This document shows, in pieces, positions 3,250-24,286 of a DNA stretch of 31,612 nucleotides (position 1 is its first letter; each line of letters begins with the position of its first letter). Below the pieces are notes generated by a model, which made no database searches, was not told where the DNA came from, and was given only the letters and a program-made list of their open reading frames with translations. The translations under genes were made by a program, and so were the position numbers. This DNA comes from Synechococcus sp. GTDB lineage: Bacteria > Cyanobacteriota > Cyanobacteriia > Thermostichales > PCC-7336. Location of the stretch: contig JBFRWN010000089.1 of the NCBI GenBank assembly GCA_051439605.1, forward strand, positions 1 through 31,612, read 5' to 3'.

Positions 3250-3726
3250 TCAAACTTGCACGGTCAACACCGAACAGGAGGTGTGCCATGTCACGTAATT
3301 GCTCGCACTGCCCAGAGCCTTCCCCGCCCTACCCCCCGATCCATGTCGGCCCATAACGATTAAATCTGCGTTCCACTGGCTCGCCAACCAACAGATAGTC
3401 CTGCCCACGTCCCCCAACGTTTGACGAATCTCAGACTCAATCCCCTGTTCCCGAGCGCGATCGGCATAGGTTTGCAACAGTTTGAGGCTGTTCTGCTCGT
3501 CCGCTTGCAATTGCTCTAGGTACCGCTCTCTGGCCGCTGCATGCTCGGGAGACTCTAACGCTTCGGGCAATGAATAGGTTTCTTCAGAAAGGGGATCGGT
3601 TAGGGGGGATAGAATGTGTACCAACAAAAATTTTGATTGATTCGTACTGGCCACCGAGAGAGCTTGCTCGAACACTACGTTGCTACTGTCAGAGTGGTCC
3701 AAGGCCACCAAAATTTTTTGAAACAC
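3250..3726 (-). CDS. Universal stress protein (UspA family)
   Basis: FQKILVALDHS N-terminus and ADLIVMGRHG...LGSASNYVTWHTSCSVLTV motif; start placed at GTG 3726 behind GGAG (ORF track start 3753). Confidence 0.93.
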   Translation of the reverse strand: MFQKILVALDHSDSSNVVFEQALSVASTNQSKFLLVHILSPLTDPLSEETYSLPEALESPEHAAARERYLEQLQADEQNSLKLLQTYADRAREQGIESEIRQTLGDVGRTICWLASQWNADLIVMGRHGSGGRAGKALGSASNYVTWHTSCSVLTVQV

Positions 3727-3906
3727 TCTCGTTGGCTCCAAGAGAAGAGGCACTTTACTAAGCTAAGCGCTACCGCAGGCAAATGCTGGGAAAAAAGACA
3801 AAAAAACAGACTAGCCCCGGATTGAAGTCGACCAGCAGAACTGGGTGCGCTGTCGAGTTACCGATCGCCTATTGTCGAGTCAGAAGCAGCGAGGTCCGCA
3901 CGAACA

Positions 3907-4914
3907 GTGAACCAGTCCGACATTGCGCTATTTGCCCTGAATGCCACGCATGAGTTTGGCGAAAAAGTCAGCCAAGCACTGGCACTTCCCTTAAGCCAGC
4001 ACGAAGAACGGGAATTTGAAGCAGGCGAACACAAGGCCCGACCGCTGGTCAACGTTCGCAACAAAGATGTCTACGTGATTCAGTCACTGCACGGCGATGC
4101 TAATCACAGTGCTAACGACAAGCTCTGTCGGCTGTTGTTTTTTATCGGCGCCCTCAAAGACGCCGCGGCCGCTCGCGTCACCGTGTTCGCTCCCTATTTG
4201 TGCTACTCCCGCAAAGACCGAAAAACCAAGTCCCGCGACCCCGTCACCACCCGCTATGTGGCAGCCCTATTCGAAGCCGTCGGCTGCGATCGCTTCGTTA
4301 CCCTAGATGTGCACAATCTCGCTGCCTTTCAGAATGCCTTCCGCTGTCGCACCGAACATCTAGAAGCCAAAACCCTCTTCGTGCGTCATTTCGTACCGCT
4401 CGTGGGGGAGAGTCAAGTGGCCGTTGTGTCGCCGGATGTGGGGGGAGCCAAACGGGCGGAACAGTTTCGACAGGCTCTCAGCCGCGCCCTCGACCAGGAG
4501 ATTTCCACTGCTTTTGTAGAGAAGTATCGCAGTTCTGGGGTGGTGTCCGGTCAAGCGATTGTGGGGGATGTGCAAGCACGAGTGGCTATTATCATCGACG
4601 ACATGATTTGCGGCGGTACCACCATGGCAAGGGCTGCCGAAGCCTGTCGCAGCAAGGGGGCCATTCGGGTGTATGTCGCCGCTTCTCACGGTCTGTTTAC
4701 CGAAAAGGCCAATCGAGTTCTGGCCACACCGGCCCTCGATCGGATCGCGATCGCCGACTGTATTACCCCGTTTCGGCTGACCTCGCCGGAGGTGCTATCC
4801 AAGCTGGATGCGATCCCAACGGCGCCGTTGGTAGCCGAGGCCATTCGTCGCATGCACGAGGGTGGCTCGTTCGTGGATCTGTTGGACCCTCCCTTCTCTA
4901 GCAGTGTCAGCTAA
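3907..4914 (+). CDS. prs: Ribose-phosphate pyrophosphokinase (Prs family, divergent paralogue)
   Basis: [28 protein letters not shown] and PRPP-binding [12 protein letters not shown] motifs, plus ASHGLF. Confidence 0.88.
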
Positions 4915-5962
4915 CGCGATCGCTCGCCTCGGGCAGAGGAAGGTGCTGTTCGGCTAGATCGAGATAGCGCACGGCCAGATCGAACCAGGTTTTGGTATCC
5001 CCTTTTCCGGGTTCTCGCGTATGCCAGATGGCAATTTTGGCCCGCAAGTAAGCTCGGTAACTCTTGTAGAACTCCACAAGCAAGATGGGTGGCCGATCGC
5101 CAGTTGTGCTGGAGTAGGTATCCATGACGAGAGGCCCAATCCAAGCTGCCCCCAGTCGTTCGCATTCCAATGCCAGAAATGCCAGTTCGTCCACGGGATC
5201 GAGAATGCGAAACTCCCGCTTGAATTCCAGACAATCGATAATGGTTGGCTGGGGTTTTAGGCAGATGTGCTCGGGACGAAGATCGCCGTGACCCTCAATA
5301 ATTCGGCCCAATTGGACACGGCGATCGAGCTGTTCCGACTGACCATCGAGAAACGCCAGTTGTCCGGCAGCGATGGCTCGCACCCGATCTTCCGGCAGGT
5401 CGTAGGCAGGATCGAGAAGTACGTTCGAGGTGGCGTTGACATCTTGGCGTAAGCGATCGCGATAGGCAGAAGTGCTGAGGGCCACGGGAGGCAACTGCTG
5501 GTAAAACCGCGCCAGGAAGCGGGCAATGTCGCGAACCTCTTCCTTCTGAACGGTTTGATGCTGAATGCCCCAGTCCAGCATGCACTGCCACGGCAATCGG
5601 CGCATCTTCACCAGCCAATCTACAGTTCGACCTGTATCCGTCAGAGTCAGGCTGTCGTGCTCATCGAGGGCCAACGGTACGATGTCGAGGTAGACATCAG
5701 GAGCGAGTCTGCGATTGAGGCGCAGTTCGGCTTCGCAATCTCTGAGCCTAGCCTCCACAGTGCTGAAATCCAAAAACTCGTAGCGTACGGGCTTCTTCAG
5801 CTTGTAGGCGAAATGGTCTGTCAAAAAGACCCAGGACATGTGGGTTTCGATCGCTTCTACGGTTTGGGGACGGTCAGCATAATTGGTCGGTTGGCTGAGG
5901 AACCTCACCTTGTGTTCTGTCGCTGAGTCAGAATTTCTGGATTCAAATTCGCCCATGGCCAT
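4907..5962 (-). CDS. Aminoglycoside phosphotransferase-like kinase (N-terminal module of the Rv2004c-type family, no P-loop domain)
   Basis: [39 protein letters not shown] (catalytic loop) and IIDCLEF motifs. Confidence 0.85.
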
Positions 5963-6201
5963 AAGACGGTGTCTCGCTTGTGCCGCGATCGCCTGCCTTT
6001 GTTATATCCGCCAATCGAGGCAATGCTAGCGCGTAACAACGGTCGATCGCTGTCTATCTCTGACCGTAAATAGTGAGAACTATTCAATTGGCTATTCTGT
6101 AGATTTTTACCCACAAGCTTGAGTGGAATTCAAACATTCAGAATGCTGGGTTTACATGCAGCTTGCGACAGTGTCCATTCCCTGCAGAACGAGCGCAAAA
6201 A

Positions 6202-6210
6202 TGCTATTAT
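6202..6210 (+). promoter_or_regulatory. Extended -10 promoter element TG-C-TATTAT
   Basis: TGCTATTAT lies 6-7 nt upstream of the start of a long predicted helix at 6216-6217. Confidence 0.5.
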
Positions 6211-6215
6211 ATAGA

Positions 6216-6429
6216 TGGAAGCGGAGGTAGCTTCCCCCACCACGGCGGGTAGTGGCAAGGCTCAAATGAAGGGCTAAGCCAACCAGGATCTGGGATGATT
6301 CAACCGCGTGAGGAAGTGGGCTTCGGTTCCAGACGGTTTGATTCTGCGAAGGAGGTTAAGCCCGTTGACAATTTATTTCTCATCCAGTTAGCGAGCGATC
6401 GGATTTCGACGATGGCTCGCTAATTTATT
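6216..6429 (+). ncRNA. Candidate structured non-coding RNA of unknown family
   Basis: GC-rich patch in an AT-rich intergenic region; nested helices 6216-6226/6321-6331, 6230-6235/6312-6317 and 6241-6248/6304-6310; internal hairpins; GCGA tetraloop hairpin at 6333-6365; flanked by a promoter-like element and a terminator-like hairpin. Confidence 0.5.
6388..6429 (+). terminator. Terminator-like hairpin
   Basis: TTAGCGAGC (6388-6396) pairs with GCTCGCTAA (6415-6423), ATCG pairs with CGAT inside, followed by TTTATT. Confidence 0.5.
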
Positions 6430-6684
6430 GCAACTACCACCACATCAATCGTGTGACGAGTGTTCGCGAATTGTTGTTGAAATGATGTCTGGACAGTGCT
6501 CCAATATTCTTGAAAAACTTTTAGTTACTCTTTTGAGATTTATGAATCTTCTGTGGTTTACTGATCGATCTCTGTTAACACCAGCCTGTTGATTAGAAGG
6601 TTGGTAACGTACTTATGCTTTCTGGACTTACACAATAAATTGTCACCTTAAAATAAAGATAGAGTTTCGATAGCTAAAAGTCTG

Positions 6685-7113
6685 GTGGCTGATTTACATC
6701 CCACAGTTTGTGATGGCTTTGAAGAAGTCGAGCATACGGCAGAGTGGGCCTACCGGGTGTGGGGGGCGAGTTTAGAAGAGCTATTCGTTCGTGCCGCTGC
6801 AGGGCTTTATTCGCTTGCGGGCGTTGAGTTGGAGAATTCTCCCCACGTCGATCGCGAGATTCATTTGGATGGGATCGACCGTATTAGCTTGCTAGTGGCT
6901 TGGTTGAACGAGCTGCTGTTTCTGTTCGAGAGCGAGGGGTTAGCCTTCGATCGCTTTGAGATTTTGCAGTTGGATGGTGGCTTGCTGCGGGCCCGAGTCA
7001 GTGGTGCCCCTGTAAAGGAGTGGATGAAACACATCAAGGCGGCAACCTACAGCAACCTATCGATCCGCCAGACGGATGCGGGAGTTGAAGCGACAGTCGT
7101 TCTCGACGTTTAA
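6685..7113 (+). CDS. Archease (RtcB activator)
   Basis: EEVEHTAE, G-x-SLEELF, LLVAWLNELLF, IKAATY and C-terminal VVLDV; directly upstream of rtcB. Confidence 0.92.
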   Translation: MADLHPTVCDGFEEVEHTAEWAYRVWGASLEELFVRAAAGLYSLAGVELENSPHVDREIHLDGIDRISLLVAWLNELLFLFESEGLAFDRFEILQLDGGLLRARVSGAPVKEWMKHIKAATYSNLSIRQTDAGVEATVVLDV

Positions 7114-7198: not shown

Positions 7199-7205
7199 TG
7201 GGGCC

Positions 7206-8657
7206 ATGGTCAGCAAACAGGACTTCCGCCACATTGATACCTATGTTTGGGAGATTCCCACGTCCTTTCACTCCGATATGAACATCCCCGTCTGGATCTT
7301 TGCAGATGAGGAATTGCTGGAAGACGCATTAGGGGATCTATCCGTACAGCAGGCGGTGAATGTGGCTTGCTTGCCGGGCTTAGTGGGGCATGTGGCAGTG
7401 ATGCCGGACGTCCACCAAGGATACGGCATGCCGATTGGTGGTGTGATGGCGGCACGAGTGCCGGATGGAATTATTTCTCCGGGGGCAGTGGGATACGACA
7501 TCAACTGTGGTGTCCGGGTGTTGGCTTCTGACATCGACTACGAGTCTGCCAAGCCCTATATGGCCGACTTGGCAACGGTGCTGTACGCGAACTGTCCCAG
7601 CGGGGTAGGGAGAGGGGGGAAAATCCACCTGTCTACGGGCGAATTAGACCGAGTCTGTCAGAAAGGAGCACAGTGGGCCAAAGAACAAGGCTACGCCGAA
7701 CCAGAGGATTTAGAACGCACGGAAGAGTTTGGTTGTATTGCAGGTGCCGACCCCGAATCGACCAGCGAGCGGGCAAAACAGCGGGGCAAAAAGCAACTGG
7801 GCACGCTGGGGGCGGGCAATCACTTTTTGGAAGTGGATGTTGTGAAATTCATCTACAACCGCGAAGCTGCCGACGTTATGGGATTGTCAGAAGGCTGTTT
7901 GGCAGTCCAGATTCACTGCGGGTCGCGGGGATTCGGCCATCAGGTCTGCACCGACTACGTACACGATTTTCAGTGGGCGGTGCAGCGCTACGGTATCCAC
8001 CTGCCCGATCGCGAGCTGGTTTGCGCTCCCATTAACTCGCCGGAAGGTGAAGCCTATCTGGGGGGCATGAGGTCGGCGGCCAATTTTGCCTTTGCCAACC
8101 GGCAGGTTTTGGCCCATCGCGCTCGCGAAAGTTTCCAGAAGATTTTCGGAACGCAAGCGGGGGCGCATCCACTGCGGCAGGTTTACGACATTGCCCACAA
8201 CATGGCCAAGATGGAAACCCATAATATCGACGGTCAAGAGAGAGAGGTTTGCGTGCACCGCAAGGGGGCAACGCGGGCATTCGGACCGGGGTTTTCCGGG
8301 TTGCCCCCCGAGTATCGCCCCCTCGGTCAACCTGTGCTGGTGCCCGGTTCGATGGGGACCGAGAGTTGGATTTTGCTGGGGACGGCGGAGAACGATCGCC
8401 TGTCGTTTGGCTCTAGCTGTCACGGGGCCGGACGGGTGATGAGTCGGCGGAGGGCGAAGCGGACGATCCGGGGGGACGCTCTGCGGGATGAACTAGAGCA
8501 CGAGGGCATTTGCGTGCGTGCGGGGTCGATGCCGGGATTGGCGGAAGAAGCCCCCAAGGTTTACAAGGACGTCAGCCGCGTGGTGCAGACGGTGAGCAAG
8601 GCAGGGATAGCCCGTAAGGTCGCGATGCTGCAGCCGGTGGCAGTGGTTAAGGGTTAG
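7206..8657 (+). CDS. rtcB: RNA ligase RtcB (3'-phosphate/5'-OH ligase)
   Basis: [53 protein letters not shown] and SCHGAGR are all intact; ATG 7206 preferred over TTG 7179. Confidence 0.97.
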
Positions 8658-8709: not shown

Positions 8710-9759
8710 ATGAAACTTGCGACGACGTTACCGATTCCTCCCCACTTCCGATCGGACCGCGTGGGAGAGGTTTGGCGGGTTCCCTATGCAGAGAGGGCGG
8801 CTGCAGCTGAGGCATGGGCGAAACAGTACGGCATTCTCCCAGCAGCAACCGATCGCGTCCACATTGGCTTGCTGGCGATCGACATCCAGAATACGTTCTG
8901 CATCCCCGATTTTGAACTGTTTATCGGAGGGCGATCGGGAGTTGCCGCAATTGAGGATAATGTCCGACTGTGCGAGTTTATTTACCGCAACTTAGGCAGT
9001 CTTTCCAAAATCATCTTCACGCTCGATACCCACACTGCACTGCAAATTTTTCACCCCATCTTTTGGGTCAACGATCGCGGAGAGCATCCGGCCCCTGCCG
9101 CAACCGTCATTTCCTCGCAGGATGTTCAACAAGGGATTTGGCAGGTTAATCCGGCGATCGCCGCTGATTGGTTTGACGGCGATCGCGCAGCGGCGGACTA
9201 TGCCTTGCATTACGTGCAGACTCTGGAACGTGCAGGTAAATATTCGCTTACGGTGTGGCCCTATCACTCGATGCTGGGGGGAATCGGCCACGCGCTGGTT
9301 TCGGCTGTCGAAGAAGCTGCCTTTTTCCACAGCATTGCTCGACAAAGTTCCACTCAGTTCGAACTGAAAGGGCGACATCCGCTGACCGAGCACTATTCGG
9401 TTTTGCAACCGGAAGTGATGACCGCTGCAGGCGATCGCCCCCTCGCACAAAAGAACGAATTGTTGATTCAGCAATTGCTGGCGTTCGATGCCCTGCTGGT
9501 TGCCGGTCAAGCCAAGAGCCACTGCGTCGTTTGGACGCTAGAGAATCTACTGGCGGAGATTCAAGCCCTCGATCCTCAACTGGCTGAGCGGGTTTACTTG
9601 CTAGAGGACTGCACCTCCCCGGTGATCGTTCCAGAGGTTGTGGATTTCACCCAACAGGCTGATGACGCGTTCGATCGCTTTGCAGCCGCAGGGATGCACG
9701 TCGTGCGTTCCACCGATCCGGTAGACAGTTGGCCAGACTTTCCCCATGAAGGGGGATAG
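8710..9759 (+). CDS. Isochorismatase/cysteine hydrolase family, probable nicotinamidase
   Basis: Asp-Lys-Cys triad motifs IDIQNTF, KG...EHYS and GQAKSHCV; metal ligands TLDTH and WPYH; adjacent to pncB. Confidence 0.82.
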   Translation: MKLATTLPIPPHFRSDRVGEVWRVPYAERAAAAEAWAKQYGILPAATDRVHIGLLAIDIQNTFCIPDFELFIGGRSGVAAIEDNVRLCEFIYRNLGSLSKIIFTLDTHTALQIFHPIFWVNDRGEHPAPAATVISSQDVQQGIWQVNPAIAADWFDGDRAAADYALHYVQTLERAGKYSLTVWPYHSMLGGIGHALVSAVEEAAFFHSIARQSSTQFELKGRHPLTEHYSVLQPEVMTAAGDRPLAQKNELLIQQLLAFDALLVAGQAKSHCVVWTLENLLAEIQALDPQLAERVYLLEDCTSPVIVPEVVDFTQQADDAFDRFAAAGMHVVRSTDPVDSWPDFPHEGG

Positions 9760-9795: not shown

Positions 9796-11151
9796 ATGGA
9801 AGATAAAGAACTCATCATCAAGCCCGATGAATACGGCCTGCTGACCGATCAGTACGAACTGACCATGGCCGCCTGTTACGTCGGTGAGAATCTGGATCGA
9901 TCTCGGGCCAGCTTTGAGTTGTTTGTCCGTCACCTTCCAGAAGGATTTGGGTATTTGATTGCCATGGGGTTAGCCCAGGCACTGGACTTTTTGGAAAAGT
10001 TTCGATTTGGTCCCGATCAGATTCAGGTCCTCAAGTCCACCGGTCTGTTCGATCGCGCCCCCGACCGCTTCTGGTCGCTGTTAGCCGAAGCGAAATTCTG
10101 TGGCGATGTGTGGGCCGTCCCGGAAGGCACCGCCGTGTTTGTCAACGAACCGCTATTGCGGGTGGAAGCGCCTTTCTGGCAAGCACAAATCGTAGAGACG
10201 TATTTGCTCAACACCATCAACTACCAAACCACGATTGCCACCCGCGCAGCCCGTCTGAGGGATGCTGCTGGTCCAGACGCCACCATCCTGGAATTTGGCA
10301 CCCGTCGGGCATTTAGTCCCCAAGCCTCCATTTGGGCAGCTCGGGCAGCGCTGGCGGCTGGTTTGGACGCCACCTCTAATGTTTTGGCGGCGTTGAAGCT
10401 CGGTCGCAAGCCGGCAGGCACGATGGCCCATTCTCTGGTGATGGGTCTCGATGCGAAGGAAGGCAGTGAAATGGAAGCTTTTAAGGCCTTCCATCGCTAC
10501 TTTCCCGGTGCCACCTTGTTGATCGATACCTATGACACCGTTGCTGCAGCCCGGGACTTGGCTCTGCAGATCGAAGCGGGTGAGATGAGCGTCAAGGGGG
10601 TCAGGCTAGATTCCGGGGACTTGGCCGCTTTGTCTCAACAGGTGCGCTCCCTATTACCGGAGGTGTCTATTTTTGCTAGCGGTGATTTAAACGAATGGAA
10701 AATTGCCGAACTGCGAGCTGATGGAGCAGACATTGACGGTTACGGAGTAGGAACCTGTTTGGTGACTGGCTCCCCCGTGAATGGGGTGTACAAGCTAGTA
10801 GAGATCGACGACATTCCCGTTATGAAAGAGTCCAAAGGGAAAGCGACATATCCCTCCTGTAAGCAAATTTTTCGCCGCATCGACAATGGCAGGTTGGGTG
10901 TAGATCGCTTGGGGCTCCAGTCCGAATCTGCTCGACCAGGGGAACATCCCCTAATGGAGCGATGGATTGAGGCAGGAAAGTGTGTCAAATCCCCCGAAAC
11001 GCTGGAAGAGATAGCCCGCAGAACCGCAATGTCCGTTGCTCAACTCCCCGAGACGGTGCGCAGGGTCGATCGCCCCGTTCCGCTCTCCCCTGAGATTTCC
11101 GAGCAGCTACAGAGTATGACTCAACAGACGCAGCAGAGGAGAAAAAGGTAG
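9796..11151 (+). CDS. pncB: Nicotinate phosphoribosyltransferase
   Basis: LLTDQYELTM, EFGTRR, ATSNV, GTMAHS (phospho-His), LIDTYD, VRLDSGD, ASGDL and VYKLV. Confidence 0.95.
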   Translation: MEDKELIIKPDEYGLLTDQYELTMAACYVGENLDRSRASFELFVRHLPEGFGYLIAMGLAQALDFLEKFRFGPDQIQVLKSTGLFDRAPDRFWSLLAEAKFCGDVWAVPEGTAVFVNEPLLRVEAPFWQAQIVETYLLNTINYQTTIATRAARLRDAAGPDATILEFGTRRAFSPQASIWAARAALAAGLDATSNVLAALKLGRKPAGTMAHSLVMGLDAKEGSEMEAFKAFHRYFPGATLLIDTYDTVAAARDLALQIEAGEMSVKGVRLDSGDLAALSQQVRSLLPEVSIFASGDLNEWKIAELRADGADIDGYGVGTCLVTGSPVNGVYKLVEIDDIPVMKESKGKATYPSCKQIFRRIDNGRLGVDRLGLQSESARPGEHPLMERWIEAGKCVKSPETLEEIARRTAMSVAQLPETVRRVDRPVPLSPEISEQLQSMTQQTQQRRKR

Positions 11152-11313
11152 TGTATTTTACGGATATATGAGGATTACCTATGCAATTAGATATAAATTG
11201 TGCTTTCTAGAACGCTTTTCTGGTTCGTACTTTATATTCCTGAATAAGCTCGCTGGAACTGCCTCGTTTGCAGCGGAGTGCAATTTCCAGTTGAAATCGA
11301 TGTGTGTGCTGAT

Positions 11314-12282
11314 ATGCAGCTCAGTGTCATCATTTGCACCCGTAACAGGGCGGAGAAATTGGAGCGTTTACTCCAATCGATCGCCGATTGCGATCGCCCC
11401 ACGACCGATCGGCAATGGGAGGCGATCGTCGTGGACAACGGATCTAGCGATCGTACCTGCGAGATCGCAACCGCTTTTCAGGCATCACTTCCCGTACGCA
11501 TCGTCAAAGAAGAGCGGGCCGGTTTGTCGCATGCTCGCAATTGCGGTGTGGAAGTTGCTCGGGGTGAATGGCTGGTGTGGACCGACGATGACGTCACGGT
11601 CGGGTCAAACTGGTTGATTGCGTATTTCAACGCGATCGACACCTATCCCGACGCCCACATTTTCGGAGGCCCGATTGCCGTTCATTTTGAAGGGACTCCG
11701 CCAGCTTGGTTGGTGCGCGGGCTGGCTCATGTCCGGTCGGCTTACGCTGGGCTAGAACCCGGTGATGTTGGGATTAAACTGAGTGCAAATTCCGGGCTGC
11801 CCTACGGTGCAAATTTCGCGTTACGGCGATCGACTGCCCAGCAGTATCCCTTTAATTCCCGTCTCGGCCGCCACCCAGATCGACCCACCCGGAGTAATGA
11901 AGAAACCTCGGTCATGCGGGATATTCTCCATGCAGGAGGCAGTGGGCACTGGTTACCAGAAGCCAGGGTTTTGCACCACATTGATTCAACTCGCCAAACC
12001 AGTGCCTACCTGCGGTCTTACTATGTCGAGGCGGCCTTCATGAATACCCTTGACCGATCCAGCCGAATGAACAGCCTGGTCGTAGCCAAAAATCTGGCAT
12101 ACGCCCTCAGTCGGGTGGCAATCGTTAACGTCAACCATCTGGCGGCGATCGCCAGCTCAGATGATTCCCATCGTACGGTTCGAGTGCGTGCGACTGCCTT
12201 ACCCTGGGGACGGGCAATGGGCTATTTAGCAATGCTGTTGCATCGTCTGCGTCACACGCAGGAGGATTGTTTGCCGTTATGA
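11314..12282 (+). CDS. Glycosyltransferase family 2
   Basis: LSVIICTRNR, VVDNGSSD, GLSHARN, WTDDD (DxD) and GANFA; ATG 11314 preferred. Confidence 0.92.
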   Translation: MQLSVIICTRNRAEKLERLLQSIADCDRPTTDRQWEAIVVDNGSSDRTCEIATAFQASLPVRIVKEERAGLSHARNCGVEVARGEWLVWTDDDVTVGSNWLIAYFNAIDTYPDAHIFGGPIAVHFEGTPPAWLVRGLAHVRSAYAGLEPGDVGIKLSANSGLPYGANFALRRSTAQQYPFNSRLGRHPDRPTRSNEETSVMRDILHAGGSGHWLPEARVLHHIDSTRQTSAYLRSYYVEAAFMNTLDRSSRMNSLVVAKNLAYALSRVAIVNVNHLAAIASSDDSHRTVRVRATALPWGRAMGYLAMLLHRLRHTQEDCLPL

Positions 12283-13922
12283 ACAAGCGCTTGCTTGTCA
12301 TTGGGCTCGATGGTTTCGAGACAACCATTGCGGAACGTCTGATTGCCGAAGGGCGGATGCCCAATCTCGCCAAGACGATGGTTCGCGCTGCCCGTGCGAA
12401 TCTCGATCACGGATCGGCCAAGCGCACGGGGCTTGCATGGGAGCACTTTGCGACCGGGCTGTCACCGGCTGGAGCAAAACGTTGGTCGGCGGTCACCTTC
12501 GACCCCGAGGACTACCGCTGTTGGCAGGAACTCACCAGAATGACGCCGTTCCCAGCAGGGCTTGACGTTGACACAGTTGTTTTCGATGCGCCTTACTTCG
12601 ATCTGCGCAAGGCGAAGAACGTCCGCGGTTTGGTCAGTTGGGGGGCCCACGACCCCGGTACTCCCCAGACCGCCAATCCGTCTTCACTCCTCAAGGAGAT
12701 CCGCAGTCGGTTCGGTCCCTACCCTGCAAAGCCTTGGATCTATGGCTATACGTGGGCCAGTGCTTCCCGCACGCAAACTATGGGTGAGGCCCTCGTTGCT
12801 GCCACCAAGCAGCGGGGGGGAATTACCCGCTGGTTGCTCGGCGAACGCTTTCCAGATTGGTCTCTCGGTATCGTTGTTGTCAGCGAGCTCCATTCGGCAG
12901 TTGAGGCATTGTGGCACGGGTTGGATGGGTCGCACCCCCTCTACAGCATGCCGTCTGCGGCACCGGCCCGGCGCGGGCTCGAAGCCGTATACGAATCCGT
13001 CGACGAGCTGATTGGCTTACTGATCGAGAGTTTTCCGGACAGTTCTCACCTGTTAGTTTCCCTGCACGGCATGGGGCCGAACGAATCGGATATCCCGAGC
13101 ATGGCCCTACTCCCAGAGTTTCTCTACCGGCGAGCCTTTGGCAAGCCTCTAATGAAGCAGACTGCGGACGACCCGTGCCAGCTGCTAGCGGTGGGTGAAG
13201 AGGAAAACTGGACTGCCCATGTTAAGGCGCAGATGCTAGACGGAGTTTACCAGGATAACCAATCCCGCACGGGGCTCCTGCCCAAGCCAGTGCAGCGCAG
13301 AGCAAAGGCCTTGATGAACCTGTTCCGAAAAGACTGCGAGGCAGGCAGAACTTCCTACCTTCGTTGGATGCCAGCCAGCTGGTATTCGTCTTACTGGCCA
13401 CAGATGCAGGCGTTCGCTATGCCATCGTTCTACGACGGTCAAATCCGACTCAACGTCAAGGGTCGCGAGGCTAAAGGGCTGGTTGACGTCGATGATTACG
13501 ACACTGTCTGTCAAGACATCGCTGCAACGCTGAGCGCCTGCATCGATCCGAGCACCGGTCTGAGCGTGGTCGACGAAGTCATTTTTACGCACCCGGGTGC
13601 ACCGATGGCAGTTACGGACACCGAGGCCGACATCATTGTTTTGTGGCAAGGTTCTCCCCTCGCACTGCAACCGCCCGGTGCGGATGTTATTGGCCCGATC
13701 GCCTATCGCCGGCCAGGGGGGCATACCGGCGGTTACGGTCTATCGCTATGGCTGGGGGAGGACATAGTCCCGGGGGAATACGGACTTCACTCCGCTTTTG
13801 ACGTGGTGCCAACCCTTGTCGATTACCTTGACGGCACTATAAACCCTGCATGGGACGGACAGAGTTTTCTCTCGGAGTTGACATCCGAGAGCGGATTGCA
13901 AGTCAAGGCAGCGCACGATTAG
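12279..13922 (+). CDS. Alkaline phosphatase superfamily / type I phosphodiesterase-nucleotide pyrophosphatase-like protein
   Basis: LLVIGLDG, GRMPNL, W..FATG, VSLHGM, IRLNVKGRE, GGH and FDVVPT motifs; ATGA overlap with the GT2 stop. Confidence 0.85.
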   Translation: MNKRLLVIGLDGFETTIAERLIAEGRMPNLAKTMVRAARANLDHGSAKRTGLAWEHFATGLSPAGAKRWSAVTFDPEDYRCWQELTRMTPFPAGLDVDTVVFDAPYFDLRKAKNVRGLVSWGAHDPGTPQTANPSSLLKEIRSRFGPYPAKPWIYGYTWASASRTQTMGEALVAATKQRGGITRWLLGERFPDWSLGIVVVSELHSAVEALWHGLDGSHPLYSMPSAAPARRGLEAVYESVDELIGLLIESFPDSSHLLVSLHGMGPNESDIPSMALLPEFLYRRAFGKPLMKQTADDPCQLLAVGEEENWTAHVKAQMLDGVYQDNQSRTGLLPKPVQRRAKALMNLFRKDCEAGRTSYLRWMPASWYSSYWPQMQAFAMPSFYDGQIRLNVKGREAKGLVDVDDYDTVCQDIAATLSACIDPSTGLSVVDEVIFTHPGAPMAVTDTEADIIVLWQGSPLALQPPGADVIGPIAYRRPGGHTGGYGLSLWLGEDIVPGEYGLHSAFDVVPTLVDYLDGTINPAWDGQSFLSELTSESGLQVKAAHD

Positions 13923-16294: not shown

Positions 16295-16765
16295 TTATTC
16301 TCCTTCTCGAACGAGGATGCGAATGGGGCCTTGCTGGCGATCGCCGCTAGCCCTCTTGGGAAACGTCACCTCCAATAGACCTGCACAATAGCGGGTGGCT
16401 GCTGCTTCTAGATCGAGACCGGATGGCAGCGCAACTTCGACAGAAAAGGGACCGGACCAAATTTCTATTTGATGGATCCTGCAGACTTTTTCGGGCAAGA
16501 TGCCGGCTCGCTGCCCTTGAATGACGAGCTGACCTGGCTGCAGTTGAAGGGTGATGTCTTCGGGAGTCAGTCCTGCTAGCTCTGCTAACACGACAAAGGT
16601 GTCATCGGTTTCGTAGACATCAAGGGCCGGCCTACAGGGGGCCGTACACAGCGCTGACTGAAGATGCCGAGAATTGGAAATTGCTTGCATCCGATCCATC
16701 CACCGATCGACCGAGCGGTTCCACTCCTCAACGCGATCGAAAAGACTGTCCCACTGTTGGTTCAT
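16295..16765 (-). CDS. Hsp20/alpha-crystallin small heat shock protein
   Basis: PALDVYET, AELAGL, LVIQGQR, GPF and A.Y.AGLLEVTFPK motifs; AGGAG RBS. Confidence 0.9.
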   Translation of the reverse strand: MNQQWDSLFDRVEEWNRSVDRWMDRMQAISNSRHLQSALCTAPCRPALDVYETDDTFVVLAELAGLTPEDITLQLQPGQLVIQGQRAGILPEKVCRIHQIEIWSGPFSVEVALPSGLDLEAAATRYCAGLLEVTFPKRASGDRQQGPIRILVREGE

Positions 16766-16850: not shown

Positions 16851-18059
16851 CTAGCGGCCCGCGTCGAGCAGTTCCCCCGGACGCACGGAAATTTGCTGGG
16901 AGAGATCGCCCCTCTGGACTTCAAACATCAGGGGTTCTCCAATCTCGCTGTTCTCTACTAAAGTTTGCAATTGTTCGCTATCGACGATCTCTGTCCCTTC
17001 GATGTCCGTCACTACGTCCCCCCTGCGCAAACCAGCCTTTGCAGCGGGGCTATCGGGGACCACTTGCACCACCAACACCCCATTGATTTCCGGAAGCAGA
17101 TAGGGAGAGTTGGGATCGTCGTTGTAAGTTTTGGCCAGTTCGGGGGTCAGCGTCAGCATGCGAATACCGATATAGGGGTGGGGAATCGTTTCCCCGCGGG
17201 CTAGTCGGTCTTGAATTGCTTTGGCCCGATCGATCGGAATCGCAAAGTTAATTCCTTCAGCACCGGGGCGAATGGCTGTATTGATGCCAATCACCTCCCC
17301 TCGATCGTTGAGCAGCGGCCCTCCGGAGTTACCCGGATTGATGGCTGCATCGGTTTGCAGGAAGTCTAGGCGCTTATCGGGGATGCCAACTTGGGCGCTA
17401 GAGCGACTGAGGGCACTGATGATGCCGAGAGAAACCGTGTTGTCCAAGCCCAACGGATTACCAACAGCGATCGCCCAATCCCCCACCTGCAGTTCGCTGG
17501 AGCTTCCCAAAGGGGCCACCGGCAGATTGCTGCCCTCAATTTTGACCACGGCTAGATCTGAGGGGTCGTCAATTCCTCGCACCTCACCGCGTAACGTGCG
17601 TCCATCCCTCAGGTTGACGGTCACCATCTCTGCCCCGCTGACCACGTGGGCGTTGGTCAGAATAATGCCGCTGCGATCGACAATGAAGCCCGAGCCTTGT
17701 CCTCTGACGCGACGTTCTCGGGGCAAGTCCGGGAAGGCATCCTCGCCGAAAAAGCGACGGAAGAAGGGGTCATCGAAGAAAGGATTGGGTGCCGTGGTGA
17801 CGGTGCGTTCGGTGTCAATCCGAACGACGGCGGCTCCTACGCGATTGACCGCAGCGGTGACAAAGTTGCGGGAATTGTTCGGGAAGTCTTGCGTTCTGTC
17901 CACTACTGCTGGGATTTCAGCAATGTGCCCGGGACCAGGAAAGGGGAGCCTGACTCCGGGAAATATTTGCGGGACACCCAAAATAATGGCAATGACCACC
18001 GCAACGGTCATGGCGAGAGTACTCAGGGGTATCAAATATCTCTCTTGAGAAGAAGACAT
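16851..18059 (-). CDS. HtrA/DegQ (HhoA/HhoB-type) serine protease with PDZ domain
   Basis: N-terminal membrane anchor, GSGFI, LTNAHVV, DLAV, QTDAAINPGNSGGPL and a C-terminal PDZ. Confidence 0.96.
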   Translation of the reverse strand: MSSSQERYLIPLSTLAMTVAVVIAIILGVPQIFPGVRLPFPGPGHIAEIPAVVDRTQDFPNNSRNFVTAAVNRVGAAVVRIDTERTVTTAPNPFFDDPFFRRFFGEDAFPDLPRERRVRGQGSGFIVDRSGIILTNAHVVSGAEMVTVNLRDGRTLRGEVRGIDDPSDLAVVKIEGSNLPVAPLGSSSELQVGDWAIAVGNPLGLDNTVSLGIISALSRSSAQVGIPDKRLDFLQTDAAINPGNSGGPLLNDRGEVIGINTAIRPGAEGINFAIPIDRAKAIQDRLARGETIPHPYIGIRMLTLTPELAKTYNDDPNSPYLLPEINGVLVVQVVPDSPAAKAGLRRGDVVTDIEGTEIVDSEQLQTLVENSEIGEPLMFEVQRGDLSQQISVRPGELLDAGR

Positions 18060-18107
18060 TCATTTGTCCTCCCGTTCAATCAAAGCAGGAACTGAACAAG
18101 AACCTGA

Positions 18108-18338
18108 TTATTTCCGCATCCGGTAGGTAATCCGTCCTCGGGTCAAATCGTAAGGAGATAACTCTACCTTGACGCGATCGCCAGGCAGAATTTTGATGTA
18201 GTGGCGCCGAATCTTACCGGAAATATGGGCTAAGACATTGACACCGTTGTCCAGATCGACTCTAAACATGGCATTCGGCAGAGACTCTGTTACGAGTCCT
18301 TCCATTTCAATTGCATTTTCCTTGGTTGAACTAGCCAT
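18108..18338 (-). CDS. infA: Translation initiation factor IF-1
   Basis: [18 protein letters not shown]...[37 protein letters not shown]. Confidence 0.97.
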
Positions 18339-18449
18339 CGACTCCGTACCTTCCTGATTAGGATTGTTGAACGATTAATATTTGGTTCAAAACCATAGTC
18401 TCATTTGTACACCTGAAAAGTCTTCCTCCTTAGCGAGCAGTAAAGTGAA

Positions 18450-20336
18450 CTACTTGCTGTCTACAAAATCAGCATCGATTACATCTTCCTCATCACCAGT
18501 TCCGCTGGGTTGCGATCCTGTCGTATCAGCGCCAGCATGGGCATACACTGCGCTGCCCACTAGCATCAAGGCTTGTTGTAAGTCTTCGGAGAGGGACTTG
18601 ATGCGATCGTACTCTTCGCGCTCGATCGCTTCGCGCAGCGTTTTTACCAACTCTTCCACCCGAGTTCTGTCCGCCGCCGGAACCTTGTCCCCCAGTTCTT
18701 TCAGTTGTTTTTCGGCTTGGTAGGCCAGCGAGTCAGCCTGATTTTTGAGCTCAACTTGTTCGCGCCGCTGTTTATCTTCAGCAGCACGAGCTTCAGCCTC
18801 TTGAACCATGCGTTCTACTTCGCTCTTGTTGAGGGTAGAAGCACCGGTGATGCTAATGGATTGCTGCTTTCCGGTGCCTTTGTCTTGGGCCGTAACCGAG
18901 AGAATGCCATTGGCGTTGATATCGAACGCTACCTCGATTTGGGGGATACCCCGTGGAGCGGTGGGAATGCCGGCAAGGTTGAAGGTACCCAGGCTCTTGT
19001 TGTCTGTTGCCATATCCCGCTCCCCTTGCAGCACGTGAATCTGGACGGTGGTTTGTCCGTCGGCGGCCGTGCTGAAGATCTCTGATTTACGCACCGGAAT
19101 CGTGGTGTTGCGGTCGATCAGTCGGGTCATGACGCCACCCAACGTTTCCACCCCCAGAGACAGCGGGGTGACATCGAGTAGCAGGATATCGGTGACTTCC
19201 CCACCGAGGACTCCGGCTTGCAAGGCAGCACCTACCGCCACCACCTCGTCAGGATTGACTCCCTGACAGGGGTCTTTACCCGTCATTTTCCGCACTAACT
19301 CCTGGACGGCAGGCATTCTGGTGGAGCCCCCAACCAAGACGACTTCGTCAATATCGGAAGCGGTCAGCTTTGCGTCTTTCAACGCCTGGTGAACCGGACC
19401 GCGACAGCGATCGAGTAAGTCCGCGCACATCTGCTCGAACTGCGATCGCGTCAGGGTGCGATCGAGGTGTTTGGGACCGGTGGCCGTTGCAGTAATAAAC
19501 GGGAGATTGATGTTGGTTTGGGAAGTGCTGGAAAGTTCGATTTTGGCTTTTTCGGCGGCTTCTGTCAGCCGTTGCAGGGCTTGTTTATCTTTGCGTAAGT
19601 CGATGCCTTCGTCTTGAAGAAATTCCTCGGCGAGCCAATCGACAACCATCTTGTCAAAGTCATCCCCACCCAAATGGGTATCGCCGCTTGTGGAGCGTAC
19701 TTCAGCCACTCCCTCACCCACATCGAGGACAGAAACGTCAAAGGTGCCGCCCCCCAAGTCAAACACCAAAATAGTCTCGCTGCCTTTCTTATCTAACCCG
19801 TAGGCCAGAGAAGCCGCGGTGGGTTCGTTAATGATTCGCTTGACGTCGAGCCCTGCAATGATGCCCGCATCCCGGGTTGCCTGTCGCTGAGAGTCGTTGA
19901 AATAGGCTGGAACCGTTATCACCGCTTGCTTAATAGGCTCACCCAGGTACTTGCTGGCGTCATCCACCAGCTTGCGCAGCACCTGAGCGGAGATTTCTTC
20001 AGGGGCGAATTCCTTTCTAAGTTGTGGGCAATCGAGCTTGACGTTACCGGTGTTGTCCCGCTTCACGGTATAGGACACCTCGGTTGCCTCGTGGGTAATC
20101 TCGTCGAATTTGCGCCCGACAAACCGCTTGATCGAATAAAAGGTATTTTCTGGGTTCATGACGGCTTGGCGTTTGGCAATTTGTCCCACCAAACATTCAC
20201 CCTCTTTCGTATAGGCCACCACTGAAGGTGTGGTCCGTCCCCCTTCCGCATTGGCGATGACGGTGGGCTGTCCGCCTTCCATGACTGCCAAGCAGGAGTT
20301 TGTGGTGCCCAGATCGATACCGACAATCTTTGCCAT
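18450..20336 (-). CDS. dnaK: Hsp70 chaperone DnaK
   Basis: [40 protein letters not shown] linker and DVIDADF terminus; likely start MAKIVG at 20336 with GAAGGA RBS. Confidence 0.98.
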
Positions 20337-20600: not shown

Positions 20601-21767
20601 CTAAGAGCAGCCTGTTTCCAGCAGCACACTATCCTTGGGCTGAACTACCCGGTGCCGCAGGGTGTCTTCCCTCAGGTCTCGTTCCAATGCCGCAATCACC
20701 GATCGCAGAGAACCAGTCTCTCGGAATACCCTGCGCTGGCGCATGTAGCCAGGCCCGTCTTCAAGATATCGAGCCAACTGGTTGAGGTACTCTCTTTCCA
20801 TCAAGTCTTCAGCGGTAGCGGCGATCGCCTCTAGAGTGTCTTCAAAAACTGCTCTGAGCGATCGGCAAGGACCTCGGTCGTTTTCGATGCAGTTTGCATC
20901 GATTCCCTGGCGAGACGCTTGGAAGTAATTCTCTTTTTCGATCCACCACGGGCCAGGATGCAGTTGAAATCCTGCTTCCTCCCCCTCTCGACAGCGCTGC
21001 AAGTAGGTGGTCAGGGTACGGACGAAAGACGCTAGCATCAGCGCTTCGCTCAAGGTTGAGGGGGCATCCATCGTCCGGATCTCCAACGTACCCAAGCGAG
21101 GCTGCAGGCGCAGATCCCAATGGATATCCCGAATACCATTGAATAAGCGTGCCTGTTTGGCTTGCTCGAAAAAGTCAGAGAACTCCTGCCACGAACAAAA
21201 TACAGGCGGCATTCCGTAGGATCTTCTGCTTGCCAACAAGCGCTGGCGGAAGGAGGCGTAACCGGTGTCGCAGCCCCACCAAAAGGGGGAACTGGCCGAT
21301 AGTCCTAGCAGTAGAGGCAGATAGGGCCTGAGCTGGTTCATGGTGGCGATCGCCTCGTCCCCAGACCGCATACCGATATGAACGTGCATGGCAAACGTGA
21401 CGAAATTTGCCAGATAGCCCGCGGTGGCCGATTGGCCTAGATATCTTGGGTCTGGAGTAATGGCGGCCAGCTGGCTGCCGAAGGGATGGGTTCCGGCACC
21501 GCACAGAGTCATACCCAGCGTGCGGCATCTGGCCGACAGCTGTGTAAGTAGGGCAGCGAGGTCTGCCTCTAACTCTGCGATCGTCGCGCAAATCCCCGAC
21601 TTGATTTCCACTGTGGCTTGGTTGTATTCCGTCGCGATTGCGGGATTTCTCGGTCTGAAGGCGACGAGCGGGAGGATGCCGTTTGCCAAATCCAGTGTTT
21701 CGGGATCGAGCAGTTGCAATTCTAGTTCCATCCCTAGAGACGGGATGGGGGAAGCGTGGAATTCCAT
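20601..21767 (-). CDS. YbdK-family carboxylate-amine (glutamate-cysteine-like) ligase
   Basis: SLGMELELQLLD, GAGTHPF, MHVHIG, LSASSPFW, WDLR and GTLEIRTMD. Confidence 0.92.
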   Translation of the reverse strand: MEFHASPIPSLGMELELQLLDPETLDLANGILPLVAFRPRNPAIATEYNQATVEIKSGICATIAELEADLAALLTQLSARCRTLGMTLCGAGTHPFGSQLAAITPDPRYLGQSATAGYLANFVTFAMHVHIGMRSGDEAIATMNQLRPYLPLLLGLSASSPFWWGCDTGYASFRQRLLASRRSYGMPPVFCSWQEFSDFFEQAKQARLFNGIRDIHWDLRLQPRLGTLEIRTMDAPSTLSEALMLASFVRTLTTYLQRCREGEEAGFQLHPGPWWIEKENYFQASRQGIDANCIENDRGPCRSLRAVFEDTLEAIAATAEDLMEREYLNQLARYLEDGPGYMRQRRVFRETGSLRSVIAALERDLREDTLRHRVVQPKDSVLLETGCS

Positions 21768-21782
21768 GGCGTTCTGGGATGG

Positions 21783-22955
21783 CTAGGCATATGCTTGCAA
21801 GGCTTCTCTGGCGACGCGATCGAAGAAGGCAGCAGCGTATTTCATCGCCTCCTCGTCGAAGTCGAAGGATGGACTGTGCAGCGGGATATTCTCCCACCCC
21901 TCCCGGCGAGCCCCGAATCGGACGTAGCAGCCCGGCACCTGCTGCAGGTAATAGGAAAAGTCCTCCGAGCCCATGCTGGGTTGATCCATTTCTGCTAAGC
22001 CTTCGGGGCCAAACGCTGCTAGCACTGCTCGTCGGGCAATTTCAGCTTCCCGAGCCGTATTGACCACTGGAGGATAGCCCTCCCGAATCTCCACTTGGAT
22101 CTGGGCATTGTGGAGATCTCCCACCGCTTTGGCCATCCGTTGCAGGCCCTCGATAAGATGAGCTCTCACATCGGGGGTGGTGGTTCGAATCGATCCTTGG
22201 AGCGTGGCCTCCTCGGCAATGACGTTCCCGGCAGAGCCAGCTTCAACTTTGCCCACCGTCACGACGGAGGGATGGGCTGGGTTGATTTCTCGCGACACCA
22301 ACGTTTGGATGGCCACAATCAGCAACCCCGTCACGACAACGGCGTCGACAGCCTCGTGGGGGCGCGCGCCATGTCCTCCCCGGCCTTTCACCCGAATCGT
22401 AAACGCATCAGATTGAGCGGTAATCGTACCGCTAGCCACCATAATTTGTCCCACTGGGTAGTGGCGCGTCACGTGCCCGCCAAAAATGGCTTTTACCCCT
22501 GCCAAAGCCCCAGACTCAATCATGACTTTGGCTCCGCCCCCTCGCTCCTCGGCGGGTTGAAAGATGAGGAGCACCTTGCCTTCAGTGGGTGGATTTGCCT
22601 GCAATAGCGCTGCTGCCCCTAACAGAGAGGCCACATGTCCGTCGTGACCGCAGGCATGCATCTTGCCCGCATGCTCTGACGAGAACGGCAAGCCGGTATT
22701 TTCAAATCCAGGCAAAGCATCCATATCCGCCCTCAATCCCACCACGGGAACTCCTGGCTGGGCCGATCCAATGGCGGCGACGATCCCCCCGCCGACGCCA
22801 CCGTATTCAAAGGGGATCTCGAGACGTTGGAGTTCGTCCGCAATGAGGCGGGCGGTCTTTTCCTCCTCGAAGGCAAGCTCGGGATGACGATGCAGCATTC
22901 TCCTCAGTTCGACCATTCTGGGAAAAACTCGTTCGGATTGAAGGACCGTTTTCAT
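21783..22955 (-). CDS. M20D family amidohydrolase
   Basis: LHRHPELAFEE, LRADMDAL, MHACGHD, FQPAEE, GGHGARPH, MGSEDF and LHSPSF. Confidence 0.94.
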   Translation of the reverse strand: MKTVLQSERVFPRMVELRRMLHRHPELAFEEEKTARLIADELQRLEIPFEYGGVGGGIVAAIGSAQPGVPVVGLRADMDALPGFENTGLPFSSEHAGKMHACGHDGHVASLLGAAALLQANPPTEGKVLLIFQPAEERGGGAKVMIESGALAGVKAIFGGHVTRHYPVGQIMVASGTITAQSDAFTIRVKGRGGHGARPHEAVDAVVVTGLLIVAIQTLVSREINPAHPSVVTVGKVEAGSAGNVIAEEATLQGSIRTTTPDVRAHLIEGLQRMAKAVGDLHNAQIQVEIREGYPPVVNTAREAEIARRAVLAAFGPEGLAEMDQPSMGSEDFSYYLQQVPGCYVRFGARREGWENIPLHSPSFDFDEEAMKYAAAFFDRVAREALQAYA

Positions 22956-22997
22956 GGCGCAACTCCTGCGAGAAAGACTGGTATAGGTGAATGGCAG

Positions 22998-23312
22998 CTA
23001 CAATTGCCGCGATAAATCAGAACGATAGGCCTGCAGCTGTGCTTTCAATTGGGTAATTTCACGAGCCATCTCTAGAGCGATCGCCGCACCGGCTAGATTC
23101 AGCTCCAAATCCGCTTGCAGGCGAGCAATCTGACCGATGCGTCCGACATCCCGCGATCGCACCATCACCCCAACCGGCACGATTACCCCCAGGTCAACTA
23201 GCTGTTCGATCGTTACGATGGACGTTTGCGTTAGCAGAGCCGTTCGCTCGAAGGTATGGAGGCGTTCGCCATCTGGCGAGAACACGAAGGTGGACAGACT
23301 GTACTGACTCAT
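22998..23312 (-). CDS. cbpM: Chaperone modulator CbpM-like (MerR-like HTH)
   Basis: LVDLGVI and RLQADLELNLAGAAIALEM; ATGA overlap with the upstream J-domain gene. Confidence 0.75.
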   Translation of the reverse strand: MSQYSLSTFVFSPDGERLHTFERTALLTQTSIVTIEQLVDLGVIVPVGVMVRSRDVGRIGQIARLQADLELNLAGAAIALEMAREITQLKAQLQAYRSDLSRQL

Positions 23313-24286
23313 AGCCTTACCCCGCTCAAGCGATCGCGGGGGGTAAAACTGCGCTGGCTGCGAATTTTCTCGTAGTATTCGCGTTCGAGGGTACTCAACT
23401 CCGGCGGGGCCACCACCTGCAGCTCGACATACTGGTCTCCTCGCTGACCCTTATGAAGCCAGCCCTTGCCCTTTAATCTCAGCATTTGGCCGGAATGCAC
23501 CCCCGGTGGGACGGTCACCCTAACGCTGCCGTCAGGAGTGGGGACGTCGATCTGAGTCCCCAAGACCGCCTCGTCTGGGGTGAGAGGCACCTGACACTTG
23601 AGGCGATCGCCCTCCAGCCGGAAGAAGGTGTGGGGGCTCAACTCGACGATGAGATAGAGATCCCCCCTCTTCTGGTTCAACGGGTTAGGGCGACCTTTCC
23701 CTTTCACGCGAATGCGACTGCCTGCCTTGGCTCCCGGCGGAATGCGAATCGTGAGGGTTTCTCCGTCTACCTTCAGTCGCTTTTGCACCCCTCGAAAGGC
23801 TTCTGACAGGGTGAGCACAATCGAGGCTTCGGTATCGGCAACAGGAGACTGGGCGCGAAACTCGCTAAACATGTCTTCAAATCCGCCCGCTCCCCCTGGC
23901 ATGCCTCCCGTTGTGGTGTAGGTATACACCCGCCCTCCGGGGCGATCGCCCATCCGGCCTAGTAGTTCGTTAATAAACTCGTCAAAGCTGCCATAGCGGC
24001 TGAAGTCGAAGCCCCCCACTCCCGCTCCTGGCGGGACTCCACCTCCGCGGCCTTGCTGCCAGTACTGTCCGAACTGGTCGTATTGCTGGCGTTTTTGGGG
24101 ATCGGAGAGAACTTCGTGGGCTTCGTTCAGGTCTTTGAATCGTGCTTCCGCAGCTGTATCACCAGGATTGAGATCGGGATGGTACTTGCGCGCGAGCTTG
24201 CGATAGGCCCGCTTGATGTCGTCAGCGGTAGCCGTTTTGCTCACGCCCAGAATTGCGTAATAGTCTTTGAAGTCCGTTGCTACCAC
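23309..24286 (-). CDS. dnaJ: Class B J-domain co-chaperone (DnaJ/CbpA-like, no zinc finger)
   Basis: DYYAILGV...KYHPDLN J-domain, G/F-rich linker and C-terminal substrate-binding domain. Confidence 0.93.
   Translation of the reverse strand: MVATDFKDYYAILGVSKTATADDIKRAYRKLARKYHPDLNPGDTAAEARFKDLNEAHEVLSDPQKRQQYDQFGQYWQQGRGGGVPPGAGVGGFDFSRYGSFDEFINELLGRMGDRPGGRVYTYTTTGGMPGGAGGFEDMFSEFRAQSPVADTEASIVLTLSEAFRGVQKRLKVDGETLTIRIPPGAKAGSRIRVKGKGRPNPLNQKRGDLYLIVELSPHTFFRLEGDRLKCQVPLTPDEAVLGTQIDVPTPDGSVRVTVPPGVHSGQMLRLKGKGWLHKGQRGDQYVELQVVAPPELSTLEREYYEKIRSQRSFTPRDRLSGVRL

Follow-up and report, generated by a model that had tools for sequence, protein, structure and literature searches.

The window analysed here is a whole contig of 31.6 kb from the 4.9-Mb assembly of a cyanobacterium, Synechococcus sp. 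(contig JBFRWN010000089.1). Between positions 3250 and 24286 it carries a 21-kb island of genes for RNA repair, nicotinamide adenine dinucleotide (NAD) salvage and proteostasis, together with a structured RNA of about 215 nt. A sequence-only reading of this DNA had overlooked the RNA and had taken the 21 kb as a single dormancy/resuscitation cluster. Gene identities were assigned with Pfam and NCBIfam. Every gene named in that reading, from the universal stress protein (USP), Prs, the kinase, archease and RtcB to the nicotinamidase, PncB and the chaperone/protease run, was found where it had been placed. Four further genes lie inside the span, encoding a GT2 glycosyltransferase, a phosphodiesterase-family protein, a YbdK-type carboxylate-amine ligase and an M20 amidohydrolase. 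The genes of the island are as follows.

3250..3753, minus strand: USP (PF00582, E 5e-29); the genome has six USP matches, this one included.
3907..4914, plus strand: second phosphoribosyl pyrophosphate (PRPP) synthetase, Prs, of the type of proteobacterial low-oxygen islands, 30% identical to the genome's other Prs.
4907..5962, minus strand: stand-alone protein of the aminoglycoside phosphotransferase (APH)/choline-kinase fold, with an HGDLRPEH loop and Asp243, convergent with prs.
6685..7113, plus strand: archease, the RtcB activator (PF01951, E 2e-34).
7206..8657, plus strand: archaeal-type RtcB RNA ligase (PF01139); the frame is open from 7179, and the likely start is the ATG at 7206.
8710..9759, plus strand: predicted long-type nicotinamidase (PncA-like), with D58, D106, H108, W183, H186, K220 and C272 conserved.
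9796..11151, plus strand: PncB nicotinate phosphoribosyltransferase (NF006696, above cut-off), the only copy found.
11278..13922, plus strand: GT2 glycosyltransferase and phosphodiesterase-family gene, accompanied by none of the other modules at any other locus examined and likely a separate insert.
13926-16292, minus strand: second LonA protease, 45% identical to the genome's other Lon.
16295-16765, minus strand: Hsp20 (Pfam/NCBIfam), with another copy in the genome.
16851-18059, minus strand: HhoA/HtrA protease (Pfam/NCBIfam), with another copy in the genome.
18108-18338, minus strand: extra IF-1, 85% and 81% identical to the genome's others.
Within 16851..20336, minus strand: DnaK, likely start 20336, 70% and 58% identical to the genome's others.
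20601..22955, minus strand: M20 amidohydrolase and YbdK-type carboxylate-amine ligase (NCBIfam).
22998..24286, minus strand: CbpA-type DnaJ and its modulator CbpM (Pfam, NCBIfam).

The 21 kb is an accessory, lineage-patchy island assembled from separate modules, not a conserved unit. The flanking cobJ is common to three congeners (G001-G003, of which G002 is a complete genome) at 64-70% identity, and in two of them different genes come after yip1-cobJ. PncA, PncB and the YbdK ligase gave zero matches in the congeners, and RtcB, the kinase, Lon and Hsp20 gave only distant ones. The sole remnant of an island gene found there is a broken prs in G002, with its centre deleted and 30 of 52 four-fold sites identical, versus 394 of 1035 across eight neighbouring orthologues. 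The decay of prs in G002 and the absence of the genes from the congeners indicate that pieces of the island moved among cyanobacteria and decayed in them. A search of 40 relatives with the DNA of the whole cluster returned single-gene matches only, and no more than five of the island's gene families stood together at any other locus examined.

Within the genome, prs, dnaK, infA, lon, htrA, cbpA, the USP gene and hsp20 have extra copies elsewhere, while no other close copy was found of rtcB, archease, pncA, pncB, the YbdK ligase gene or cbpM. Separate housekeeping copies, as the idea of a dedicated stress cluster calls for, are thus present for prs, dnaK and infA but not for pncB. IF-1 matches, the window included, comprised three full-length and one partial (contigs C124, C39 and C68). 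With 55.7% GC, the island slightly exceeds the 99th percentile (55.4%) of 419 windows of 21 kb from the genome. Its GC at third codon positions is native-like, and so is its density of HIP1 sites (GCGATCGC): 25 in 21 kb, or 1.19/kb vs 0.86/kb genome-wide, a count between the 75th (22) and 90th (26) percentile of the same windows. HIP1 sites throughout had been read as a sign of long residence. The density stands, but long residence is not borne out, since the congeners lack the genes and transfer from another cyanobacterium would bring HIP1 too.

The structured RNA lies between the kinase and archease genes. When eight intergenic stretches were compared with G002, the sole match was 6203-6431, at 79% identity vs 38% at the four-fold sites of neighbouring orthologues. 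The fold energy of this stretch lay well below that of shuffled sequences (z -3.2 in the window copy and -5.7 in the G002 copy). Its elements are the following.

6202..6210, plus strand: extended -10 promoter-like element TG-N-TATTAT, with a similar element before all 14 first homologues.
6214..6432, plus strand: structured RNA of about 215 nt, identified by fold and covariation.
About 6216-6331, plus strand: closing stem and three-way junction.
6349-6355, plus strand: Shine-Dalgarno sequence.
6365-6391, plus strand: TTG-started 8-codon frame, ending inside the terminator.
6388-6423, plus strand: terminator-like hairpin.

A BLAST search of 29 genomes of the order and 400 of the class recovered the RNA in G002 only, and plasmids and phages gave no match. 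An exact-motif scan of metagenomes returned a single strain, 98% identical and differing mainly in one hairpin loop; the same kind of scan did not find the RNA in viral contigs. Covariance models were therefore built in three rounds from 2, 4 and 13 sequences, BLAST alone being insufficient. The first two (R1, R2) had the outer stem one base out of register, and R3 holds the corrected structure. Early searches found homologues in G009 and at locus L018. The next ones found the RNA in 7 of 10 genomes with this RtcB type, one of which was a training sequence. A shallower search of 140 class genomes gave G009, G381, G424 and one terminator fragment; in G381 and G424 the RNA was found first and RtcB or an RtcB fragment afterwards. 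With the last model, G562, G635, G075 and a second copy in G424 came to light. It gave none in two congeners or five non-cyanobacteria, and none in six genomes with distant RtcB plus two from outside the class; two distant-RtcB genomes gave weak core-only matches. In a 39-genome sample of the phylum (13 of the same class) it found G075 and one weak match. Of the 15 genomes that have this type of RtcB, 13 thus yielded the RNA; it also occurs in G002 and G075, where other pieces of the island are present.

Thirteen homologues with a mean identity of about 57% were used to assess covariation. In the model-fitted alignment, two-sided changes occurred in 26 of 31 pairs, and 94.6% of cells were paired; none of 500 shuffles scored as high, and slid controls reached 28-46%. 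An unfitted alignment recovers the junction hairpins and the terminator. All 14 first homologues have the extended -10-like element, a Shine-Dalgarno sequence and a TTG start (GTG in one). The frame is 8-9 codons long in 13 of these 14 and 11 in the other, with a chance of about 8% each; its stop lies in the terminator arm, and other frames scatter in length.

Rfam 15 gave no gathering-score match in the window, only chance snoRNA matches (E 3.6-4.8), and no relevant match at 13 further loci. ARAGORN reported nothing in the window and a normal transfer-messenger RNA (tmRNA) elsewhere in the genome. The identities cobalamin, thiamine pyrophosphate, signal recognition particle, 6S, tmRNA and Y RNA were ruled out in this way. 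Longer reading frames across the RNA on either strand were rejected as well, for their stops differ in G002 or the changes are nearly all non-synonymous. A literature search turned up no description of the cluster or the RNA, though the motif could be present in supplements, in large surveys of RNA motifs or in papers behind subscription. Upstream of the RNA, a similar sequence at 6060-6110 is kept in G002, with CTATTC-like repeats 11 bp apart that are possibly a candidate response-regulator site. In G009, a partial second copy of the 3' tail and terminator (L094:8871-8983) lies directly upstream of a catalase-peroxidase-like gene.

Some matches were left out of the family: those in G032 and the weak ones in G633, which are partial or unlike, and the core-only relatives in G334, G051 and G042. 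The core-only relatives (L116:1501-1673 in G334, L119:1501-1711 in G042 and L117 in G051) resemble the junction core only weakly and have neither a Shine-Dalgarno sequence nor a mini-frame. A common GTGTCTCC motif lies upstream of them, and in two genomes they are divergent to alaS. They are perhaps a sister RNA family.

The position of the RNA relative to genes bears on how it might act. A convergent gene follows it in 4 of 18 homologues (G002, G009, G381 and G075), which fits a stand-alone transcript. By our own reading, 13 of the 18 copies lie near island-type genes (Hsp20, phosphoribosyltransferase (PRTase), PGA_cap, M50-CBS, PCMT, P-type ATPase or archease-rtcB), a figure for which a background rate was not computed. 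The RNA is duplicated in some genomes, and it tracks RtcB by genome more than by position. Own promoter and terminator, convergent genes, duplicated copies and the tracking of RtcB by genome lead us to favour a trans-acting, stand-alone transcript. A trans role such as ribosome parking or testing, or service as an RtcB substrate, is a plausible but tentative suggestion.

The main rival for the role of the RNA is a cis-acting, translation-coupled attenuator, in which a ribosome stalled in the mini-frame would cover the 5' arm of the terminator and allow read-through into archease-rtcB or other stress genes. In almost every homologue the stop of the mini-frame does lie within that arm. The gene that follows has the same orientation as the RNA in 11 of 14, and in G000 (the window's own genome), G639 and G640 it is archease-rtcB or the partner usually found with it. 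An alternative fold masking the Shine-Dalgarno sequence was also seen in two homologues, at 5 and 10 kcal/mol above the best fold. The convergent downstream genes speak against it, as does the varied identity of the downstream genes. In the window, archease lies about 260 nt beyond the RNA and has its own promoter-like site at 6627-6654. We regard the attenuator as rather unlikely. That the RNA is a small mRNA whose active part is the 8-9-residue peptide appears very improbable. Its Shine-Dalgarno sequence is strong, its length is fixed, and Asn at position 3 and Ile at position 5 recur in most of one subfamily. However, four of five codons changed between G000 and G002 are non-synonymous, the G000, G002 and G009 peptides do not show the Asn/Ile pattern, and peptides this short are usually unstable.

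The RtcB that the RNA accompanies aligns over its full length with Pyrococcus RtcB (1uc2, E 3e-159), with archease directly upstream. Its motifs DINCG, GNHF, HCGSRG, IAHN and CHGAGR match 1uc2, indicating that the metal-binding and guanylylation motifs are intact. The type is rare: nothing above 51% identity was found in 300 genomes of the phylum, it occurred in 1 of 40 relatives, and a GTDB-wide pattern scan gave 29 loci, 11 of them cyanobacterial from 10 genomes. In a quick tree, 13 cyanobacterial sequences formed a clade (support 99) sister to Anaerolineales, with the RtcB of G381 outside. Beside archease-rtcB we found DnaK in L017, YbdK-M20 in L022 and L023, Lon, USP and hydrogenase genes in G009, and FtsH, PGA_cap and PRTase in L018; several other loci have unrelated neighbours. 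A family of 114-118 aa with a PDPW motif and no Pfam match adjoins or lies near archease-rtcB in five loci and is downstream of the structured RNA in two (L018:4811-5167, L019:8940-9287, L020:3795-4151, L021:197-541, L024:8494-8850, L099:946-1272). It was not found in the window's genome.

The product of 8710-9759 has no Pfam or NCBIfam match. It is a predicted nicotinamidase, with an Asp-Lys-Cys triad and an Asp/His/His metal site on an isochorismatase fold, and the residue set is retained across an alignment of 92 sequences. Nicotinamidases came first in its profile search (2h0r, 2wt9, 3pl1) and with its model in Foldseek (2wta, E 2e-11). A single-sequence PDB search was unsuccessful for this protein and for the kinase, which likewise has no Pfam or NCBIfam match. 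The predicted model of the kinase, a single domain of 351 aa (pLDDT 93), matched APH(2''), YihE and maltokinase best in Foldseek (E ~1e-7), and choline-kinase structures also matched. A longer paralogue, 29-32% identical, is present in the window's genome and the congeners.

A close match to the prs of the island was found in 1 of 400 other class genomes, there too convergent with the kinase. This prs type is on 19 proteobacterial plasmids and the kinase on 17, mostly near prs. Four such regions were inspected. Those of Sinorhizobium and Azospirillum contain USPs, Hsp20, CBS or HPF, PfkB, PncB, a BCAM0308-family gene and Crp/Fnr, and that of Burkholderia contains HPF, CBS, BON and Crp/Fnr. The Methylocella region contains NAD synthase but is not such an island.

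The sub-blocks of the window recur elsewhere. In G381, from another cyanobacterial family, hsp20-cbpA-cbpM-htrA-M20-YbdK lie on one contig, adjoining the structured RNA, and archease-rtcB-isochorismatase-pncB lie on a separate contig. Both operon designs therefore recur, the archease-rtcB one from non-orthologous parts. The M20-YbdK pair is beside rtcB in two genomes and inside a cbpA-cbpM-htrA operon in one more. A general-stress block of G023 (L053:1345-11602) carries hsp20-dnaK, ChaB/YflT, BON, TMEM175, YfdX and cbpA-cbpM-clpB; there was no RtcB match in that genome, and the structured RNA was not found in it.

These arrangements bear on two accounts of the island as a whole. One, put forward in the sequence-only reading, is a single co-regulated dormancy/resuscitation unit equivalent to the DosR regulon. 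The overlap of gene families with DosR (PMC5309233, as far as its account of the regulon goes), the recurrence of both operons in G381, though on different contigs, and the linking of both halves by M20-YbdK in other genomes argue for it. The clustered system proposed there survives as sub-blocks that recur in unrelated genomes, but the block was not seen whole elsewhere. The island carries at least four transcription units with no shared box among those scanned, and further DosR-like families (PRTase, PGA_cap, M50-CBS, P-type ATPase) are on other contigs. We consider a single unit unlikely. The second account, in which unrelated pieces were gained horizontally and accumulated by chance at an insertion hotspot beside cobJ, without joint function and with the RNA as a passenger, is quite improbable. 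It is consistent with the varied neighbours of archease-rtcB in the 11 cyanobacterial loci, the seemingly unrelated GT2 and phosphodiesterase genes, a NACHT gene at the left edge and the decay in G002. Against it, G381 assembled the same gene combinations from non-orthologous parts, and the RNA is structurally constrained and tracks the modules across families.

The surroundings of the island were also recorded. An HTH-NACHT-NCH2 protein (436-2745, minus strand), with weak similarity to antiphage NACHT models below the cut-off, lies in low-GC DNA at the left island edge, with short direct repeats at about 2811-2832. On the other side, 27480-27950 is a repeat element also present on about nine other contigs, and 28276-31561 encodes a TPR membrane protein, a 349-aa protein and a CHAT-domain (caspase-like) gene in lower-GC DNA. 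Families of DosR or anoxia type elsewhere in the genome include a PRTase with dienelactone hydrolase, M50-CBS, P-type ATPase, two PCMTs, PGA_cap, a Mut7-C RNase and a bidirectional hydrogenase, on contigs C7, C30, C50, C105, C128 and C139.

In the DosR regulon, Rv2630, which we take to be an archease, and Rv2004c, presumably an APH-like kinase that is longer and fused to a P-loop domain, would be counterparts of island genes; the window kinase differs in being a single 351-aa domain. The regulon also includes RtcB (Rv2631), nicotinamide recycling (Rv0573c), alpha-crystallin (Rv2031c) and the stress gene Rv2623 (PMC5309233). Of the claimed overlap, the RtcB, PncB, Hsp20 and USP families are therefore common to both by that description, while the archease and APH-like counterparts are assumed. 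DosR is described there as nine blocks under a two-component system, whereas the window cluster has no such regulator, and DnaK, Lon, IF-1 and Prs do not figure in that description. The lxa locus of Burkholderia cenocepacia (BCAM0275a-0323) is described in PMC3721108 as a 50-gene low-oxygen locus overlapping DosR. Like those of the window, its survival genes form a physical cluster, vary between strains and include USP and a small heat-shock protein. The likeness extends to the island-type prs beside an APH-like kinase, whose plasmid relatives keep company with a BCAM0308-family gene, USP, Hsp20, PncB and Crp/Fnr. Unlike lxa as described there (PMC3721108), the cluster has no intergenic TGA-N6-TCA box or Fnr-type gene and has one USP instead of six. 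It adds archease-RtcB, a full chaperone-protease operon, IF-1 and the structured RNA.

The Y RNAs (YrlA/YrlB) of rsr-yrl-rtcB operons are structured non-coding RNAs with a long closing stem that belong to an RtcB repair system. The window's RNA is also structured, with a long closing stem, and associated with RtcB. It differs in having no Rfam Y-RNA match or conserved T-loop, no Ro60 gene in the loci examined, and a Shine-Dalgarno sequence, mini-frame and terminator. The tLST/LHR heat-resistance islands are mobile and carry an extra set of Hsp20, protease and chaperones, as the window does; the latter has no ClpK/ClpG, YfdX, FtsH or thioredoxin and uses DnaK-CbpA-CbpM and Lon. With archease-RtcB tRNA-repair operons of the Pyrococcus type (1uc2) the window shares the ligase type and the activator. 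Horizontally gained archease-RtcB in mat cyanobacteria, the thermophilic Synechococcus A' clade (PMC9600594), and a TrcR- and stress-controlled rtcB in Anabaena (PMC10272220) have been described. In the window the pair is joined to NAD salvage and to the RNA, neither of which appears in the parts of these papers that deal with it.

We propose that the island is probably a set of separate modules for survival of growth arrest, including a stand-alone, ribosome-loading RNA acting in trans with the RNA-repair arm. By analogy, it likely works like the DosR/lxa sets, membership not being established, and the growth arrest served would most likely be night-time anoxia or heat in mats. From what is known of the families, RtcB and archease would re-seal cut tRNA or rRNA. 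Prs would supply PRPP, PncA make nicotinate and PncB make nicotinate mononucleotide for NAD recovery. Hsp20 would hold damaged protein, DnaK-CbpA-CbpM refold it, and Lon and HtrA degrade it, and the extra IF-1 may support translation re-initiation. As a guess, the RNA may be transcribed from its own extended -10 promoter, bind a protein via its junction, and park or test ribosomes or itself be cut and re-sealed by RtcB.

Several observations weigh against this proposal. The cluster has no regulator gene, and the window genes include no response regulator or sensor kinase. Within the intergenic DNA of the cluster, to which these scans were restricted, there were 0 sites for the lxa, FNR and CRP patterns, with only two sites at 2 mismatches, and no CIRCE site within 5 mismatches. 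The low-oxygen trigger is thus borrowed from relatives, and the proteostasis block may be no more than an operon for heat stress. In G634 and G636, which have the RtcB type, the RNA was not found; G075 carries the RNA and the M20-YbdK pair but no RtcB match, and G002 carries it with only island remnants. Candidates scored per search numbered 150, 89, 55 or 16, and this unequal depth overstates the contrast with control genomes. Several of the homologues are from genomes closely related to one another. A Fisher test (6 of 9 vs 2 of 139, p 2e-7) was set aside because of the unequal depth and the relatedness. Among the four homologues found later, the frame has 8 codons in one and 7 in another, and two lack a clean short frame. 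The peptide sequence is weakly conserved.

A bolder and somewhat doubtful extension is that mat cyanobacteria hold a dispersed DosR-like system for stasis and repair that includes a ribosome-loading RNA of a new class. This RNA, partly a scaffold and partly a mini-mRNA, would partner archease-RtcB as substrate, decoy or damaged-ribosome sensor.

The island itself is akin to known kinds; the RNA, absent from Rfam, is the part most worth bench work. It is carried by the complete-genome congener G002 and by G424 (six contigs), so it is directly testable. The gene set extends survival islands of the DosR/lxa type to oxygenic bacteria exposed to night-time anoxia, and the joining of RNA repair to NAD salvage took place twice, from different parts. 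To our knowledge, few natural substrates and partners of archease-dependent RtcB have been defined in bacteria. A covarying RNA that follows RtcB across cyanobacterial families offers a concrete candidate for such a partner or substrate.

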